Of a DNA stretch of 14,292 nucleotides, positions 5,284 to 9,922 are shown piece after piece. This stretch comes from Anaerolineae bacterium (lineage in GTDB: Bacteria; Chloroflexota; Anaerolineae; DUEN01): positions 1-14,292 of the forward strand of contig DAOUAJ010000382.1 in assembly GCA_034433615.1 (NCBI GenBank), read 5' to 3'. The notes under the pieces are model-generated. The model made no database searches, was not told the DNA's origin, and saw only the letters and a program-made list of their open reading frames with translations. The first letter of the stretch is position 1. Each line of letters starts with the position of its first letter. Both the position numbers and the translations under genes were made by a program.

Positions 5284-5868
5284 TCACCCTTCGCCCACCT
5301 GATGGGCCAGAATGATGGCCCAGGCGACCTCCTTCATAGGTTTACGGTTGTTCATGGACATCTTCTGAATTTTACGGAACGCCTCGGCCTCCGACAGCCC
5401 CTGGCGGTCCATGAGGATGCCTTTGGCACGATCCACTAACTTGCGCGTCTCCAGCGCCTCTTGCAGATCGTCTACCTGCTTTTGCATCTCCATGAACTCA
5501 CGAAAGCGGGCCAAAGCTACCTCGATAGCAGGAGCCAGGTCGGTCTCCCGGATTGGCTTCACCAAGTAGCCGGTCACACCAGCCTCGCGCGCGCGCGCCA
5601 CCAGGTCGTGCTGACTATAGGCGCTGAGCAGCAACACCGGAGCGATGCGCTCCTCCGTCAGAATCTTAGCCGCCTCGATGCCGTCCATATCAGGCATCTT
5701 GATGTCCATGATCACGATATCCGGCTTGAGCTCTCTGGCCAGATTCACGGCACTGCGTCCGTCGCCGACCTCCCCCACGACCAGGTAACCCAGGTTGGTT
5801 AACATCTCCCGTAGATCCAATCGGATCAATGCCTCATCGTCGGCAATCACGACCCGAGTCTTTTCCAC
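5284..5868 (-). CDS. ANTAR-domain response regulator (receiver plus ANTAR RNA-binding output; PdtaR/AmiR/NasT-like)
   Basis: Receiver motifs: VVIADDEALIRLDL, IVIMDIKMPDMDGIEAAK, VTGYLVKP. The C-terminus QEALETRKLVDRAKGILMDRQGLSEAEAFRKIQKMSMNNRKPMKEVAWAI is a typical ANTAR helix bundle. The SD GGGAGG lies 9 nt upstream of ATG 5868, 6 nt after the kinase stop. Confidence 0.85.
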   Translation of the reverse strand: MEKTRVVIADDEALIRLDLREMLTNLGYLVVGEVGDGRSAVNLARELKPDIVIMDIKMPDMDGIEAAKILTEERIAPVLLLSAYSQHDLVARAREAGVTGYLVKPIRETDLAPAIEVALARFREFMEMQKQVDDLQEALETRKLVDRAKGILMDRQGLSEAEAFRKIQKMSMNNRKPMKEVAWAIILAHQVGEG

Positions 5869-5874
5869 GGCTTA

Positions 5875-7452
5875 TCACCCTCCCAAAGGCAATTTTGGAA
5901 AAGAGACCTCAGCGACAACGCCATCCTTCTGATACAAAGAGAAGGTCCCTTTGAGATCGTCTCGAACCAAGGTTTGCACAATCTGCAGGCCCAAAGTTCG
6001 AGCCTGCTCCAACGAGAATCCCTCCGGCAGGCCGTGTCCATTGTCCACGATGCGGATCACGACCCTGTTCGCGATGTTGGTCAGATCGGCCTGAATGTGC
6101 CCCTCTTCCTCGCCATCAAATCCATGTTCCAGGGCGTTCAGGAGCAATTCGTTAAAAACCAGCGCGCAGGCAGTGGCCTGATCTTTGTGCAGATAAATGC
6201 TAGGGCCCCTCAACTCAATGCGGATGCGACAACCCGGCGCTAAAGTGACTTGCTCGGTCTGGCTGATGATGCGCTGAAACACGTCACGAATGTTGATGTG
6301 CTGCCCTCTGTCATGGGATAGATAATCATGGATGACGGCTACACTCAGGATGCGATTAATGGCCTCTTCCAGTTCGTGGCGGGCCTCCTCCGTCTGACAT
6401 CGCCTGGATTGCATACGCAGCACCGAAGCGATGTTTTGCAAGTTGTTCTTCACCCGATGATGAACTTCCTGCACCATCGCCCGTTGCACGTTCAGCTCTT
6501 GCTGCCTGTGCCGCGCTTCCGTGTCATCATGCACCAGGATCAATGCGCCCGCTTGGCGTCGGTAATTCGCCCGTCGGGATAGACGGTCACCGATGGCCGC
6601 AGGCAGCGGCCACGGAGGATCATAACGCAGCAGCGGGATCACCTGGCGAATCCAGTAGCGAGTTTGCTCTTCCCCTTCCCATTGCTGGCATAGCCCGGTT
6701 CGCAGCGCCGTGGCTACCAGCTCGTCGTCCCGAGTCTGCAGATCGCCTATCCACTTGCCGCGGAGATCTTCTAAATAACCCAGGTGACGGTACAGGTGGG
6801 TGGCAATCCCGCTTAGATAAGTGATGCGTCGTTGTAAGTCGGTGACGACGATCCCATCCCATTCGCCGAATGGTCCTAAAGCTTTTGCACCCCGCAGATC
6901 ACCCCGTATAGCCATCTGTTGAACCCAAGAAAGGGCCCGCTGGAAGACGCGAGAACGGCGGCGGTGACGCTCTCGTTCGATCAGGTTGGTCTCGATGGCT
7001 AACGCGGCAATGATCTGGCCGCGAGGGCCATAGATGGGGTAGACTTCTTGAATGACAGGGGCATCGCCCTCGACCACTCGTTGATGGTGGCCAGATACCC
7101 CATCGTTTAAAGCGCGCAAGACGAGAGGTTCGTCCGCCTGCTTGACTGTTTGCCCCAGCAACGAGTTGGGATGGAGGGGAGAGATAGAACGCGGCTGTGC
7201 CTGGGCGATGATAGCTGCCGAACGAGCGTTCAGGCGGCCGTAGAGAAGCACATCCGCCCGGCTGACTCCGGCCGTGATCGCCAAACCATCCTCCACCTGC
7301 TGGAGAAACTGAAGATCCGCATCACTCAAGCCCTGACAGCTTTTGACGATCGGGTGCATATGAGTCCATAGGCTACCAAGCCAGGCTCCCATGCCTGGGA
7401 TTCTCTTTATCAAGTGCAACATACAACAAAAGCCGACGGCATTGCAAGCCAT
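5875..7452 (-). CDS. Cytosolic sensor histidine kinase, HisKA_2 plus HATPase_c with N-terminal GAF/PAS-like sensor region (PdtaS-like). Start uncertain (7452, 7392 or 7359)
   Basis: The H-box EVHHRVKNNLQNIASVLRMQ is the HisKA_2 signature. The ATPase motifs NELLLNALEHG and DNGHGLP are present. No TM segments. The gene is immediately upstream of and cotranscribed with the ANTAR regulator. None of the three candidate ATGs has a convincing SD. Confidence 0.8.
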   Translation of the reverse strand: MACNAVGFCCMLHLIKRIPGMGAWLGSLWTHMHPIVKSCQGLSDADLQFLQQVEDGLAITAGVSRADVLLYGRLNARSAAIIAQAQPRSISPLHPNSLLGQTVKQADEPLVLRALNDGVSGHHQRVVEGDAPVIQEVYPIYGPRGQIIAALAIETNLIERERHRRRSRVFQRALSWVQQMAIRGDLRGAKALGPFGEWDGIVVTDLQRRITYLSGIATHLYRHLGYLEDLRGKWIGDLQTRDDELVATALRTGLCQQWEGEEQTRYWIRQVIPLLRYDPPWPLPAAIGDRLSRRANYRRQAGALILVHDDTEARHRQQELNVQRAMVQEVHHRVKNNLQNIASVLRMQSRRCQTEEARHELEEAINRILSVAVIHDYLSHDRGQHINIRDVFQRIISQTEQVTLAPGCRIRIELRGPSIYLHKDQATACALVFNELLLNALEHGFDGEEEGHIQADLTNIANRVVIRIVDNGHGLPEGFSLEQARTLGLQIVQTLVRDDLKGTFSLYQKDGVVAEVSFPKLPLGG

Positions 7453-7541: not shown

Positions 7542-7618
7542 TGGTCGGGGCGGGCGGATTTGAACCGCCGGCCACTTGAACCCCATTCAAGTGCGCTACC
7601 TGGCTGCGCTACGCCCCG
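7542..7618 (-). tRNA. tRNA-Pro (anticodon GGG), 77 nt including the encoded CCA
   Basis: Folded by hand: acceptor CGGGGCG/CGCCCCG (C1:G72, typical of bacterial tRNA-Pro), D-stem GCGC/GCGC, anticodon stem CTTGA/TCAAG with loop A-T-GGG-G-T (G37), T-stem GGCGG/CCGCC with T-loop TTCAAAT, discriminator A, CCA. Confidence 0.9.
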
Positions 7619-7769: not shown

Positions 7770-7807
7770 TTGACAAAATGGTTCTTTGGGGTTATACTGA
7801 GTATAAT
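7770..7807 (+). promoter_or_regulatory. Promoter P1: TTGACA (7770-7775), 17-nt spacer, TATACT (7793-7798), with a second TATAAT at 7802-7807
   Basis: Consensus -35 with exact 17-nt spacing to a 5/6 -10 element, seen directly. It sits in an AT-rich stretch upstream of the 84-codon ORF. Confidence 0.55.
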
Positions 7808-7822
7808 AGAACGGGTGTTCTA
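7807..7822. promoter_or_regulatory. Perfect 16-bp palindrome TAGAAC-GGGT-GTTCTA containing a GAAC-N4-GTTC core (Gram-positive/Chloroflexi-type LexA/DinR Cheo-box motif), overlapping the P1 -10 and transcription start region
   Basis: Seen directly. GAAC-N4-GTTC is the established LexA operator core in Bacillus-type and Chloroflexi-type SOS regulons. The symmetry extends beyond the core to a full 6-4-6 palindrome. Its position over the promoter core fits a repressor site. Confidence 0.4.
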
Positions 7823-7854
7823 TGCCAGCGCAGGGGAAGTCACCCATTGCGTCT

Positions 7855-7902: not shown

Positions 7903-7942
7903 GGCCCATGCGGGCCACAAGCGGCCCATGCGGGCCACAAGG
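7903..7942 (+). repeat. Two tandem 20-bp direct repeats GGCCCATGCGGGCCACAAG(c/g). Each contains a short hairpin (GGCC-CAUGCG-GGCC or GGCCC-AUGC-GGGCC) and ends 5 nt before the SD
   Basis: Seen directly. 7903-7921 and 7923-7941 are identical 19-mers. They lie in the 5' leader between P2 and the AGGAGG at 7947-7952. Confidence 0.7.
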
Positions 7943-7964
7943 TTAGAGGAGGAGAAGAGAAACT

Positions 7965-8219
7965 ATGGCCTATCGCAATAACACCGGTCTCGATATTTGG
8001 TTCAAGGATGAGATTTTGCAGACATTACGGGCAGTGGACTCAGCAAATATGGACATTGCTGGCGAGATTGATTCGCTGGAAATGCGCTTCTACCGACGCG
8101 GTTTTGAAGCAGCTATCCGCTCCGTGGCCGAGGCATTTGGCCTGGACTATCACCCTCCAGTCTCCAGGCGCCACGGCTCTCCTCCTCCTGTTGACGTGAC
8201 TTCACGCCTTATCCATTAA
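7965..8219 (+). CDS. Small hypothetical protein (84 aa, soluble, predicted helical N-terminal half, Pro-rich C-terminal tail). No recognisable family
   Basis: ATG 7965 is preceded by AGGAGGAG. It is driven by two strong promoters. No TM segment. Third-position and overall G+C are visibly lower than in flanking genes. Confidence 0.6.
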   Translation: MAYRNNTGLDIWFKDEILQTLRAVDSANMDIAGEIDSLEMRFYRRGFEAAIRSVAEAFGLDYHPPVSRRHGSPPPVDVTSRLIH

Positions 8220-8298
8220 GTAGATGGCAGAAAGTTCCTTGCAGAAAGCCTGACGACTGGAAGTCGCGGGCAACGACTGCAAAGCTCACCTTCGTGGG

Positions 8299-9792
8299 CT
8301 AGGTTTCAGTCGCCTTAGTTTCTGGCGGCTCTCGGTGCTCGGACTGGACCATTGGGGGCTGGCCAATAAAGACCTGGGCGTGGGGATTTTCCATCAATTT
8401 TTCCATAGCGCTAATGTAGCGCATCCCTGCTGCGGTGTCTTCCGCGCAATGGGTCATGATCCAGCCTAGCACACGCTCGACACGTTGAGCCACGTCAGGC
8501 GGCAACTTGCGCCAGGCTTCCTCCAGGCTGTTAATGTATTCTGAGATCGCCTTCTGTCGGGCTGCCAACCGGACCTCTTCAAAGGTGCGTACTCGCTTGG
8601 CGTCCGCCTCTCCCTGGGAAATACTGAGTTGTTTCTGGCGATCAGCGATCCACACGGCCAAGACCCGATCTGCGACCTCTTCCGGCAGTGTCATCGTATT
8701 CACTGCCATCCCTATGATCTCCACACCCCATCCGCTTGTCAGCCGACGGCACTCTTCAGTCGCTTCACTTCCAATCAATTCCAGGATCGCGGCAGACGTT
8801 TCCTCAGTGATCGGGAATAGGCCCTCTAGTGTATGACGTCCGATCACACGCCGCAATGCGATCTCGGCAACACTGGTCACAGCCCGTGGCCACTCATTTG
8901 GAGCCAGCGTCACCTTTAGCATTTGTACGATGTCTTCACGGCGTGCGGGGCAGAGGCTATCTTTGATGACCCCGCTCATCTCGTCATCTCCTTCCTCACC
9001 GTCAGCCAGATCGGCTTGTGGAAACCGGTAGCCTACTGTGGCAGAGACATGAAGAAGAGAGACACCATCTGCCGTGAGTACGTCGCCTGGTTCCACTGGC
9101 AAGAACCGTGGGTTCAGCGGTACCACTCCGCGTACACGCTCAAACGGCTTCAGAGTCACGGTGCCTGGACCAACGATCCGTGTGATCTTACCACCGCGTT
9201 CGAGCACTACTGCCTGGCAAGGGCGTACCACCAGGATGCCAGGGCCTCCTAACAAGCGCAGGATGCCAGCCTTCTTCTCATCCTTGATCTCACCATCCTC
9301 CACGATGAGAAAAGGCCCTTGCAAGCCAGCGATCAAGGTTAGCAGTTGCCGCACAACTGCACTGCGACCTAAGTCGCGCAGCGGATGGGCAGCCAGTATC
9401 AGCTCACTGCTAAGGAAAGCCAGAACAAGAAGAAAGGTAACGAGCAGACTCATAGGGGTCAGGTAGCTCACTAACAGCAGGATGAAGGCCAGGGCTGCTT
9501 CCTGAATCGCCATCTCGCTGAATGGTTTGCCCAAGGAGAGGGGAATCAATGTGAGGGCTAGCCCGGTACCCGGAAATAGGATCAGCAATCCCAGGAAGGT
9601 AAATCGTCGGAAGTTCTGAGGTACGAGCAACAGGAAGCCGCTGCCCATTAATATGCTGATTATCACCAGATGGAGGAAAGCACCCGGGATGGGCACGAAA
9701 ATGGTTGCCATGCCCAACGCAATCAACACGATACCCAGAGCCAGACGAACTCCAGAGCGCTGAGGGGGCCTCACTGATAATAACGTTTCCAT
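8299..9792 (-). CDS. SPFH/band-7 (stomatin/flotillin/HflK-like) domain membrane protein with a 4-5 helix N-terminal membrane region and a C-terminal coiled-coil; 497 aa from ATG 9792
   Basis: SPFH core ILVVRPCQAVVLERGGKITRIVGPGTVTLKPFERVRGVVPLNPRFLPVEPGDVLTADGVSLLHVSATVGYRF. A coiled-coil-like stretch QGEADAKRVRTFEEVRLAARQKAISEYINSLEEAWRKL. The SD GGAGGTGA lies 4 nt upstream of ATG 9792. The track's GTG at 9816 adds 8 residues upstream of that SD. Confidence 0.85.
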   Translation of the reverse strand: METLLSVRPPQRSGVRLALGIVLIALGMATIFVPIPGAFLHLVIISILMGSGFLLLVPQNFRRFTFLGLLILFPGTGLALTLIPLSLGKPFSEMAIQEAALAFILLLVSYLTPMSLLVTFLLVLAFLSSELILAAHPLRDLGRSAVVRQLLTLIAGLQGPFLIVEDGEIKDEKKAGILRLLGGPGILVVRPCQAVVLERGGKITRIVGPGTVTLKPFERVRGVVPLNPRFLPVEPGDVLTADGVSLLHVSATVGYRFPQADLADGEEGDDEMSGVIKDSLCPARREDIVQMLKVTLAPNEWPRAVTSVAEIALRRVIGRHTLEGLFPITEETSAAILELIGSEATEECRRLTSGWGVEIIGMAVNTMTLPEEVADRVLAVWIADRQKQLSISQGEADAKRVRTFEEVRLAARQKAISEYINSLEEAWRKLPPDVAQRVERVLGWIMTHCAEDTAAGMRYISAMEKLMENPHAQVFIGQPPMVQSEHREPPETKATET

Positions 9793-9922
9793 CACTTCAC
9801 CTCCTGCAGAAGACACGAAGACCAGCTTCTAATGCGCACCCCACCTTTACGTCGCTCATCCGACATGCTAGCTTGCACAACTATATCATATTTTCTTTAT
9901 CTGGGAAAGTCTTTACCAGATT

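Follow-up and report, generated by a model that had tools for sequence, protein, structure and literature searches.

A small helical-hairpin protein gene of Chloroflexota with a candidate LexA-type operator and a convergent SPFH neighbour

Background

In Bacillus subtilis, the SOS operon yneA-yneB-ynzC, which is divergent from lexA, encodes YnzC (DUF896/UPF0291), a LexA-regulated cytoplasmic protein of about 77 amino acids (aa) made up of a helical hairpin and a disordered C-terminal tail. Here we describe a gene for an 84-aa protein that resembles YnzC in its size, in its candidate SOS control and in its predicted hairpin plus disordered tail. The gene lies at 7965-8219 on the forward strand of a 14,292-nucleotide stretch of DNA from an Anaerolineae bacterium (Chloroflexota; contig DAOUAJ010000382.1 of assembly GCA_034433615.1), the whole of which is called the window below, and it is convergent with a gene for an SPFH membrane protein. 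YnzC is also encoded beside a LysM-type SOS gene, as is the small gene in one of the related loci with which the window was compared (L041; these loci are designated by L numbers). YnzC differs from the window protein in having no SPFH neighbour and in coming from a different phylum; none of 60 members of the window protein's family matches DUF896 at E <= 0.1 (Pfam), and YnzC was not retrieved in PDB profile searches (E <= 10) or Foldseek searches.

DinI, the SOS-induced RecA modulator of Gammaproteobacteria, is like the small protein in being acidic, about 80 aa long and LexA-controlled. The DinI fold is alpha/beta, however, whereas the window protein is a pure helical hairpin in its AlphaFold2 model; there was no match to DinI in Pfam or NCBIfam and none among PDB sequences at E <= 10, and Foldseek returned generic hairpins only, at E > 1. 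The SOS division inhibitors SulA, YneA, SosA, ChiZ and SidA are small and LexA-repressed and act on the envelope or on the division machinery while DNA is under repair, all but SulA being membrane-anchored. None of them has the hairpin domain, and no homology between them and the small protein was detected with Pfam or NCBIfam; a division-inhibitor role for the small protein is put forward here as a hypothesis.

Small partners of SPFH proteins provide the other set of comparisons. NfeD is a membrane-anchored protein with a beta-rich soluble domain that is co-transcribed with an SPFH gene, and the NfeD-SPFH pair is like the window pair in that a small accessory protein is genetically coupled to an SPFH scaffold; unlike NfeD, the window protein is soluble, all-helical and encoded convergently with its SPFH gene, and it has no Pfam NfeD match. 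HflK/HflC-FtsH is a scaffold-protease complex targeted by a small helical protein, CIII of phage lambda, but no FtsH gene is found near the window SPFH gene. The closest functional analogy for the mechanism proposed below is YdjI-PspA, as the SPFH protein YdjI is needed in B. subtilis to bring the soluble, oligomerising helical protein PspA to the membrane (PMC8581546). PspA is unlike the small protein in its length (about 220 aa), in responding to envelope stress rather than to LexA and in having its gene in one operon with that of YdjI, and no sequence similarity between PspA and the small protein was detected.

We propose that the product of the window gene is a cytoplasmic hairpin protein, SOS-inducible and oligomerising, which acts on the SPFH scaffold or together with it, a reading drawn from sequence comparisons that we would give an even chance of being right. 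Its novelty lies in the coupling of a putative SOS small protein, specific to this lineage, to an SPFH scaffold; the molecular function is hypothetical.

A conserved small gene

The small gene begins with an ATG, with no in-frame start upstream of it in a frame that opens at 7947, and a first-pass annotation of the window, made from its letters alone, had quoted the 84-aa product exactly. A word-indexed search recovered four homologous clusters, each of 84 aa, and in the homologue alignment there is almost no variation over residues 1-62, in contrast to the variable tail. Between the closer homologue pairs the ratio of nonsynonymous to synonymous substitution rates (dN/dS) is 0.01-0.07 for residues 1-62 and 0.2-0.7 for tail residues 63-84; against more distant relatives dN is about 0.08 and synonymous sites are saturated. 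Judging from these substitution patterns, the small open reading frame is a real coding gene with residues 1-62 under strong purifying selection.

The conserved part of the protein is a helical hairpin (residues ~6-60, nt 7980-8144), delimited by the homologue alignment and the AlphaFold2 model, and it is followed by a variable, disordered Pro/Arg/Ser tail (residues 63-84, nt 8151-8216) in which the predicted local distance difference test score (pLDDT) is about 50 or lower. The protein had been described as soluble, which agrees with the lack of any hydrophobic segment (maximum 19-residue Kyte-Doolittle mean 0.46) and with the helical AlphaFold2 model. Its isoelectric point is 5.8 as a whole and 4.5 for the helical core. 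A Shine-Dalgarno sequence, AGAGGAGGAG, read directly from the forward strand at 7944-7953, is strong, as the annotation had it, but stands 11-13 nt before the ATG, against 5 nt for the GGAGGT of the relatives; as this spacing exceeds that of the relatives, the description of the ribosome-binding site as ideal was overstated.

Promoters and a candidate LexA operator

Both near-consensus promoters that had been proposed for the gene are found on the forward strand upstream of it and are kept in relatives. P1 (7770-7798) combines the -35 element TTGACA (7770-7775), a 17-nt spacer and the -10 element TATACT (7793-7798), an 11/12 match to consensus, and P2 (7855-7883) combines TTGACC, a 17-nt spacer and a TG-extended -10 element, TAGAAT (10/12 match). 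The region upstream of the small gene contains four promoter-like sites, against 0.6 +/- 0.9 in shuffled sequences. The P1 -35 element TTGACAAA and a -10 element of the TAnAAT type are kept in L001, L003, L008 and L010, where the surrounding bases have diverged, and the architecture of P1 recurs in more distant loci; P2 is kept as TTGACAAA..TACAAT in L001, L003 and L008.

Ten nucleotides past the P1 -10 element, over the expected transcription start, lies the palindrome ATAGAAC-GGGT-GTTCTAT (7806-7823), a putative LexA operator with the core GAAC-N4-GTTC (GAACGGGTGTTC, 7809-7820). A passage of PMC4951493 that cites Fernandez de Henestrosa 2002 gives GAAC-N4-GTTC as the LexA box of Firmicutes and Actinobacteria, with variants in Chloroflexi. 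In the alignment of the window with L001, L003, L008 and L010, the TAGAAC/GTTCTA half-sites are the same throughout, with variation in the N4 spacer and in the flanks. The upstream DNA of more distant loci could not be aligned and was scanned instead for exact GAAC-N4-GTTC. In 11/19 distinct SPFH-linked loci the exact box is found at the small gene's promoter, either in it or beside it, and in these 11 it lies within the spacer of, or just past, a TTGACA-17-TAnAAT promoter (inside the spacer in L020, TTGACAaatcaGAACAAGTGTTCTATAAT; just past the -10 element in L013, L014, L026 and L041). Together, the 19 loci of the SPFH type contain 14 boxes in 150.5 kb, 11 of them upstream of the small gene.

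The same box is found in the promoter spacer of lexA in L028 and L033 (TTGACAcaGAACAAATGTTCgtgTATAAT), where the gene is identified by its LexA_DNA_bind and Peptidase_S24 domains, and a second box in each of these loci lies ahead of an operon containing a distant family member. The window's own organism has its lexA and recA genes outside the window, and the comparison with a lexA promoter is that with L028 and L033. Both the persistence of the box across orthologues with diverged spacers and flanks and its presence in a lexA promoter argue for the candidate SOS control that the annotation had raised. The small gene would then belong to the LexA (SOS) regulon of Chloroflexota, with an operator conserved in most of the lineage.

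Some loci show variants at the operator position. A box with one mismatch (GAACCTAGGTAC) occupies the same position in L043, and just past the -10 element there is an inverted repeat AAATGG..CCATTT in L012 and another, AGTACCAG..CTGGTACT, in L019, both without GAAC-N4-GTTC; the near-box and the inverted repeats of these three loci may be diverged operators. L014 (1638-1675), and L021 likewise, has, past the promoter, three box-like sites at 13-nt intervals (CGAACATATGTTCG, GGAACACAGCTTCG and GTAACAGAGGTTCG), which may form a cooperative tandem operator. In L041 (5427-8258), one box precedes genes for a 433-aa LysM protein and a 384-aa TPR plus Peptidase_S24 protein, and a second box lies ahead of the small gene, which is convergent with an SPFH gene; the LysM gene under a box is reminiscent of YneA-type division inhibitors. 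The window as a whole contains 3 exact boxes (0.20 expected), the other two being inside coding regions: one at 2941-2952 in the gene for a 601-aa membrane protein and one at 7220-7231 in a PdtaS-like kinase gene.

Tail-to-tail linkage with an SPFH gene

The SPFH/Band_7 membrane gene occupies 8299-9816 on the reverse strand and encodes 505 aa from a GTG (the public gene call starts at Met9 and gives 497 aa). Its product matches PF01145 (Band_7) with 55.5 bits, against a gathering cutoff of 23.6, and hydropathy places 4-5 N-terminal transmembrane (TM) segments before the SPFH domain. An assignment as an HflK equivalog was rejected (22.8 bits vs a cutoff of 159.4). The SPFH gene converges with the small gene across a gap of 79 bp (8220-8298), just as the annotation had stated, and in close relatives their coding regions overlap by 32 bp.

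In every locus where the sequence extends far enough, a tblastn search with the window SPFH protein found a homologue downstream of the small gene and convergent with it. The two genes are immediate neighbours in 16/17 of these loci, with gaps of -95 to +219 bp, the exception being L022, in which two genes are inserted and 2.2 kb separate the small gene from the SPFH gene; two further adjacent convergent pairs occur in L041 (gap 7 bp) and L043 (gap 56 bp). The linkage persists at SPFH identities of 24-31%, where other neighbours have changed. In the reverse direction, 3/3 SPFH homologues carry the small gene at their 3' end, a look-up that covers three near homologues, as the word-indexed search with SPFH gave close relatives only. 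A functional link to the SPFH gene had been suggested as a possibility, with co-occurrence as a way of checking it, and both have gained from the comparison: across the loci compared, the tail-to-tail linkage of the two genes is an obligate one.

Genes that converge at such distances could also interact at the RNA level. LexA-controlled transcription would in that case run into the SPFH 3' end and lower SPFH expression during the SOS response by interference or antisense pairing, the peptide being secondary. The orientation is convergent in all loci, the spacing is -95 to +60 bp in most of them and includes the coding overlap of the closest relatives, and the 79-bp spacer of the window has no canonical intrinsic terminator (no terminator-like site was detected, and its fold z-score of -1.16 is no better than that of shuffled sequence), all of which would suit this explanation. 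We nevertheless regard it as improbable, given the very strong purifying selection on the peptide (the dN/dS of 0.01-0.07 noted above) and gaps of about 200 bp in L012 and L015 and of 2.2 kb in L022. A protein function is moreover certain, because the domain occurs in many other contexts and as tandem-repeat proteins, and an effect on SPFH transcription could coexist with it.

In one lineage the arrangement includes another gene. L016 (7601-9109), L017 (7582-9111) and L018 (4383-5897) have a second gene for a polytopic membrane protein of about 500 aa, without a Pfam match, directly upstream of the SPFH gene and on the same strand. The SPFH protein is shorter in this lineage (425-478 aa), and the second membrane protein may be a third component there.

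Protein family and predicted structure

A profile search of 1.84 billion representative proteins returned 159 clusters at E <= 1e-3, 25 of them at E <= 1e-10, and the family therefore comprises at least 159 clusters (clustered at 50% identity). The small protein had been called an orphan, a label that does not survive the discovery of these clusters, of multi-repeat forms and of phage-borne paralogues. The accompanying statement that it has no recognisable family is right for curated libraries, as the window protein has no significant match in Pfam, NCBIfam, PHROGs (nothing below E 0.36) or PADLOC, and wrong for profile searching, which found a large family. Remote-homology searching, which the annotation had recommended, left the protein uncharacterised and without curated family or solved structure, with these clusters of relatives as its gain: Pfam gave nothing consistent on 60 family members, and profiles of 5 and of 60 members matched no PDB sequence below E 0.5. 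Where family proteins are named in their sources they are called 'hypothetical protein', and the genome matches of the family are all metagenome-assembled genomes (MAGs) of Chloroflexota (Anaerolineae and Chloroflexia). The family, which consists of small helical proteins of Chloroflexota, is undescribed and uncharacterised, and defining it would allow many Chloroflexota MAGs, and their phages, to be better annotated.

Members are mostly 60-100 aa long. Those of about 130-140 aa contain two copies of the domain and those of 240-285 aa contain 3-4 tandem copies (multi-copy members include P0038, P0043, P0050, P0058, P0064 and others, alignment A6; P0044, P0068, P0071 and P0093 have two domain stretches each). 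The alignment of 60 members yields the signature G-l-x-(I/V)WFxD(D/E)I..L.A(V/I)D.AN.D.A...YRxG(F/Y)xAA...AxAFG, in which Y43, R44, G46, A50, A55, F58 and G59 are invariant or nearly so, and the window protein has all of them. Helix 2 carries a nearly invariant small-residue motif, YRxGFxAA...AxAFG.

In the AlphaFold2 model of the window protein, helices span residues 6-34 and 38-57 with block-mean pLDDT values of 80-89 (73.5 over the whole protein). A four-repeat member is modelled as eight helices forming four hairpins in a compact body (predicted template modelling score 0.64), with a short strand at every I-W motif. This four-copy model and the small-residue motif in helix 2 together suggest assembly of the single-domain members into multi-hairpin helical bundles, and oligomerisation is also favoured by the natural occurrence of proteins in which 2, 3 or 4 copies of the domain follow one another in tandem. 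Foldseek searches of the whole PDB gave generic helical matches only (E > 1). The likeness to DinI, anti-sigma factors or NfeD-like partners that the annotation had thought worth looking for did not materialise, the PDB sequence and fold searches having returned nothing specific.

The family is like the WXG100/ESAT-6 proteins in being a helical hairpin of similar size and in that some paralogues lie beside FtsK/SpoIIIE-family ATPases, and the small protein might on this basis be a substrate secreted by an export ATPase of the FtsK/SpoIIIE type (type VII-like). PDB sequence searching yielded a single near-threshold match, and this is indeed to an ESAT-6-like protein (E 0.51, not significant); the highest-ranking Foldseek matches, likewise without significance, include ESAT-6/CFP-10 and EsxEF. 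All of these matches have E > 0.5, however, and the WXG loop motif, the Pfam match and the multi-domain ATPase are all missing: the inter-helix loop (E-I-D-S-L-E) has no W-x-G and no conserved W or G, the conserved Trp preceding helix 1, and 0/60 members match the WXG100 Pfam model at E <= 0.1. EssC/EccC ATPases are multi-domain proteins, unlike the single-domain ATPases of 350-460 aa that adjoin the paralogues, and the window is without any FtsK/SpoIIIE-type ATPase. Secretion of this kind seems to us very unlikely indeed.

Other genomic contexts of the family

Often, in about 12 loci (L001, L003, L008, L014, L016-L018, L024, L026, L043, L050 and L051), psuG and/or a PfkB kinase gene lies divergently upstream of the small gene. 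The psuG gene, of the Indigoidine_A family, encodes pseudouridine-5'-phosphate glycosidase, and psuG and PfkB form a pseudouridine-catabolism pair. In the window their position is taken by tRNA-Pro and the PdtaS/PdtaR genes, and in the short locus L052 a four-repeat family member follows a PfkB gene. The palindromic box in the shared intergenic region could affect psuG too.

Members of a more distant subgroup, named 'MGLDIWF' after its N-terminus (MGLDIWFKDDI), are encoded on viral or phage-like contigs. These contexts contain FtsK/SpoIIIE-like ATPases and small TM proteins, or a primase/DnaB module, and no SPFH gene. Distant members also occur in an SOS cluster found in L028 (2080-4656) and L033 (119-2808), in which a box and lexA are followed by a box and a gene for an FtsK/SpoIIIE-like ATPase (353-380 aa). 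After the ATPase come a distant hairpin member of 113-125 aa, a protein with two TM segments and a weak Phage_holin_2 match and, at the end of the cluster, a 'GLLWFDDNP' protein of about 75 aa that recurs on the phage-like contig L042 (3331-3690).

The small gene could accordingly be a domesticated phage or mobile-element gene which, with the SPFH gene, forms a toxin-antidote or anti-phage module switched on by LexA cleavage. Such an origin would fit the subgroup on viral and phage-like contigs and also SOS control, which prophage functions typically show; in addition, small helical hairpins are often met with as immunity or antitoxin folds, and Tsi2 and Rip1 appear among the non-significant Foldseek matches. 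On the other hand, neither protein matches any PADLOC model, the small protein finds no PHROG below the E of 0.36 given above, and its best antitoxin match, the MqsA-type model TIGR03830, was rejected at 12.1 bits (E 0.13) against a cutoff of 61.8 bits. A scan of viral contigs with the SPFH-linked subfamily found nothing, viral members coming only from the 'MGLDIWF' subgroup, and the genes that flank the pair in the window and its relatives (tRNA-Pro, PdtaS/PdtaR, glycosyltransferase, epimerase, psuG and ClpB) are housekeeping genes. We find a module of this type quite improbable.

The same contexts bear on another explanation, in which the SOS-induced small protein has a target in DNA metabolism (RecA or LexA modulation, replication or an FtsK-like translocase) and owes its adjacency to SPFH to inherited synteny. 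Distant members do lie beside FtsK/SpoIIIE-like ATPases, directly downstream of lexA or in phage-like DnaB/primase modules, in each case with no SPFH gene, and the recurrence of psuG/PfkB neighbours shows that synteny around the small gene is generally sticky; the small gene and the SPFH gene are also convergent, hence not co-transcribed. The psuG link, however, is broken in about half of the loci, the window included, whereas the SPFH link is kept in every testable locus of the subfamily and persists at the low SPFH identities noted above, and no similarity was found to DinI, RecX or other known RecA/LexA modulators. We consider a target in DNA metabolism possible but doubtful.

Proposed mechanism

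The reading that we prefer, that of an SOS-inducible hairpin protein acting with or on the SPFH scaffold, takes from comparative genomics the selection on the coding gene, the conservation of its promoter and operator, and the SPFH linkage; what we infer beyond these is that LexA binds, that the protein oligomerises and physically interacts with the SPFH protein, and which cellular process it affects. Two tandem sigma-70-type promoters would drive the small gene, LexA on the GAAC-N4-GTTC operator over the start site would repress P1, and DNA damage would raise expression above the basal level provided by the operator-free P2. On the positions of the sites, a logic of constitutive P2 and LexA-gated P1 is likely. 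The product would be a cytoplasmic protein with a 55-residue acidic helical hairpin and a disordered basic tail, whose hairpins would most likely assemble into multi-hairpin helical bundles and would most likely work with or on the polytopic SPFH membrane scaffold. The two-gene module could in this manner relay the SOS signal to a membrane complex during DNA repair, for instance through a brake on envelope growth or division or through control of a protease associated with the scaffold.

Several observations weigh against this reading. The exact box is missing in 8/19 loci, which retain a near-consensus promoter, and SOS control is therefore not universal. P2 has no operator and would escape repression, since the box lies 33 nt upstream of its -35 element. 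The topology of the SPFH protein is ambiguous (4 or 5 TM segments), and its SPFH domain might not face the cytoplasm. Because convergent genes are not co-transcribed, their adjacency is weaker evidence of a partnership than an operon would be, and because psuG and PfkB genes are recurrent neighbours as well, some of the synteny, and with it part of the SPFH linkage, could be inherited, although it is the psuG link and not the SPFH link that is broken in the window and about half of the loci. The core activity of the domain need not involve SPFH, as the distant phage-like subgroup occurs without an SPFH gene. The hairpin fold, finally, has no specific structural match.

A bolder version of the proposal, which we offer tentatively and think unlikely in its full form, would make the hairpin protein the effector of a hitherto unknown SOS checkpoint in Chloroflexota. 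It would accumulate after LexA cleavage, form bundles, bind the SPFH protein and switch a membrane process on or off (division or septation, envelope synthesis or a scaffold-bound protease), and the phage-borne paralogues would control FtsK-like DNA translocases. If true, this would be the first case in which a bacterial SPFH microdomain protein is connected directly, at the molecular level, with the DNA-damage response. To our knowledge, what bacterial SPFH proteins do physiologically is still mostly unclear, and a damage-inducible small partner would give a handle on one SPFH subfamily by providing a signal for induction, a candidate ligand and a phenotype that can be tested. The family itself would be lineage-specific, possibly a counterpart of the division inhibitors of other phyla.

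Other features of the window

The 5' untranslated region of the small gene contains, between P2 and the Shine-Dalgarno sequence (7903-7941, forward strand), a perfect 20-bp tandem duplication, GGCCCATGCGGGCCACAAGC x2 (period 20, 2.0 copies, 100% match), and a hairpin GGCCC-ATGC-GGGCC is possible within each copy. The unit is present in one copy in L010, a 99%-identical relative, and absent from L001, L003 and L008, which makes the duplication a very recent event. A scan with Rfam matched only tRNA-Pro in the window and found no known riboswitch or small RNA in this long leader.

At 1288-1319 and 1377-1407, about 90 bp apart, a 7-bp repeat (GGGACGA/AGGGACG) forms two arrays of 4.4-4.6 copies each in a GC-rich stretch without a convincing gene. 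Upstream of the small gene, the tRNA-Pro(GGG) gene identified with Rfam (7542-7618, reverse strand) has its own promoter. Beside it, at 5284-7452 on the same strand, lie genes for a PdtaS-type histidine kinase (GAF_PdtaS, HisKA_2 and HATPase_c domains) and a PdtaR-type response regulator with ANTAR, an RNA-binding output domain, in an apparent operon.

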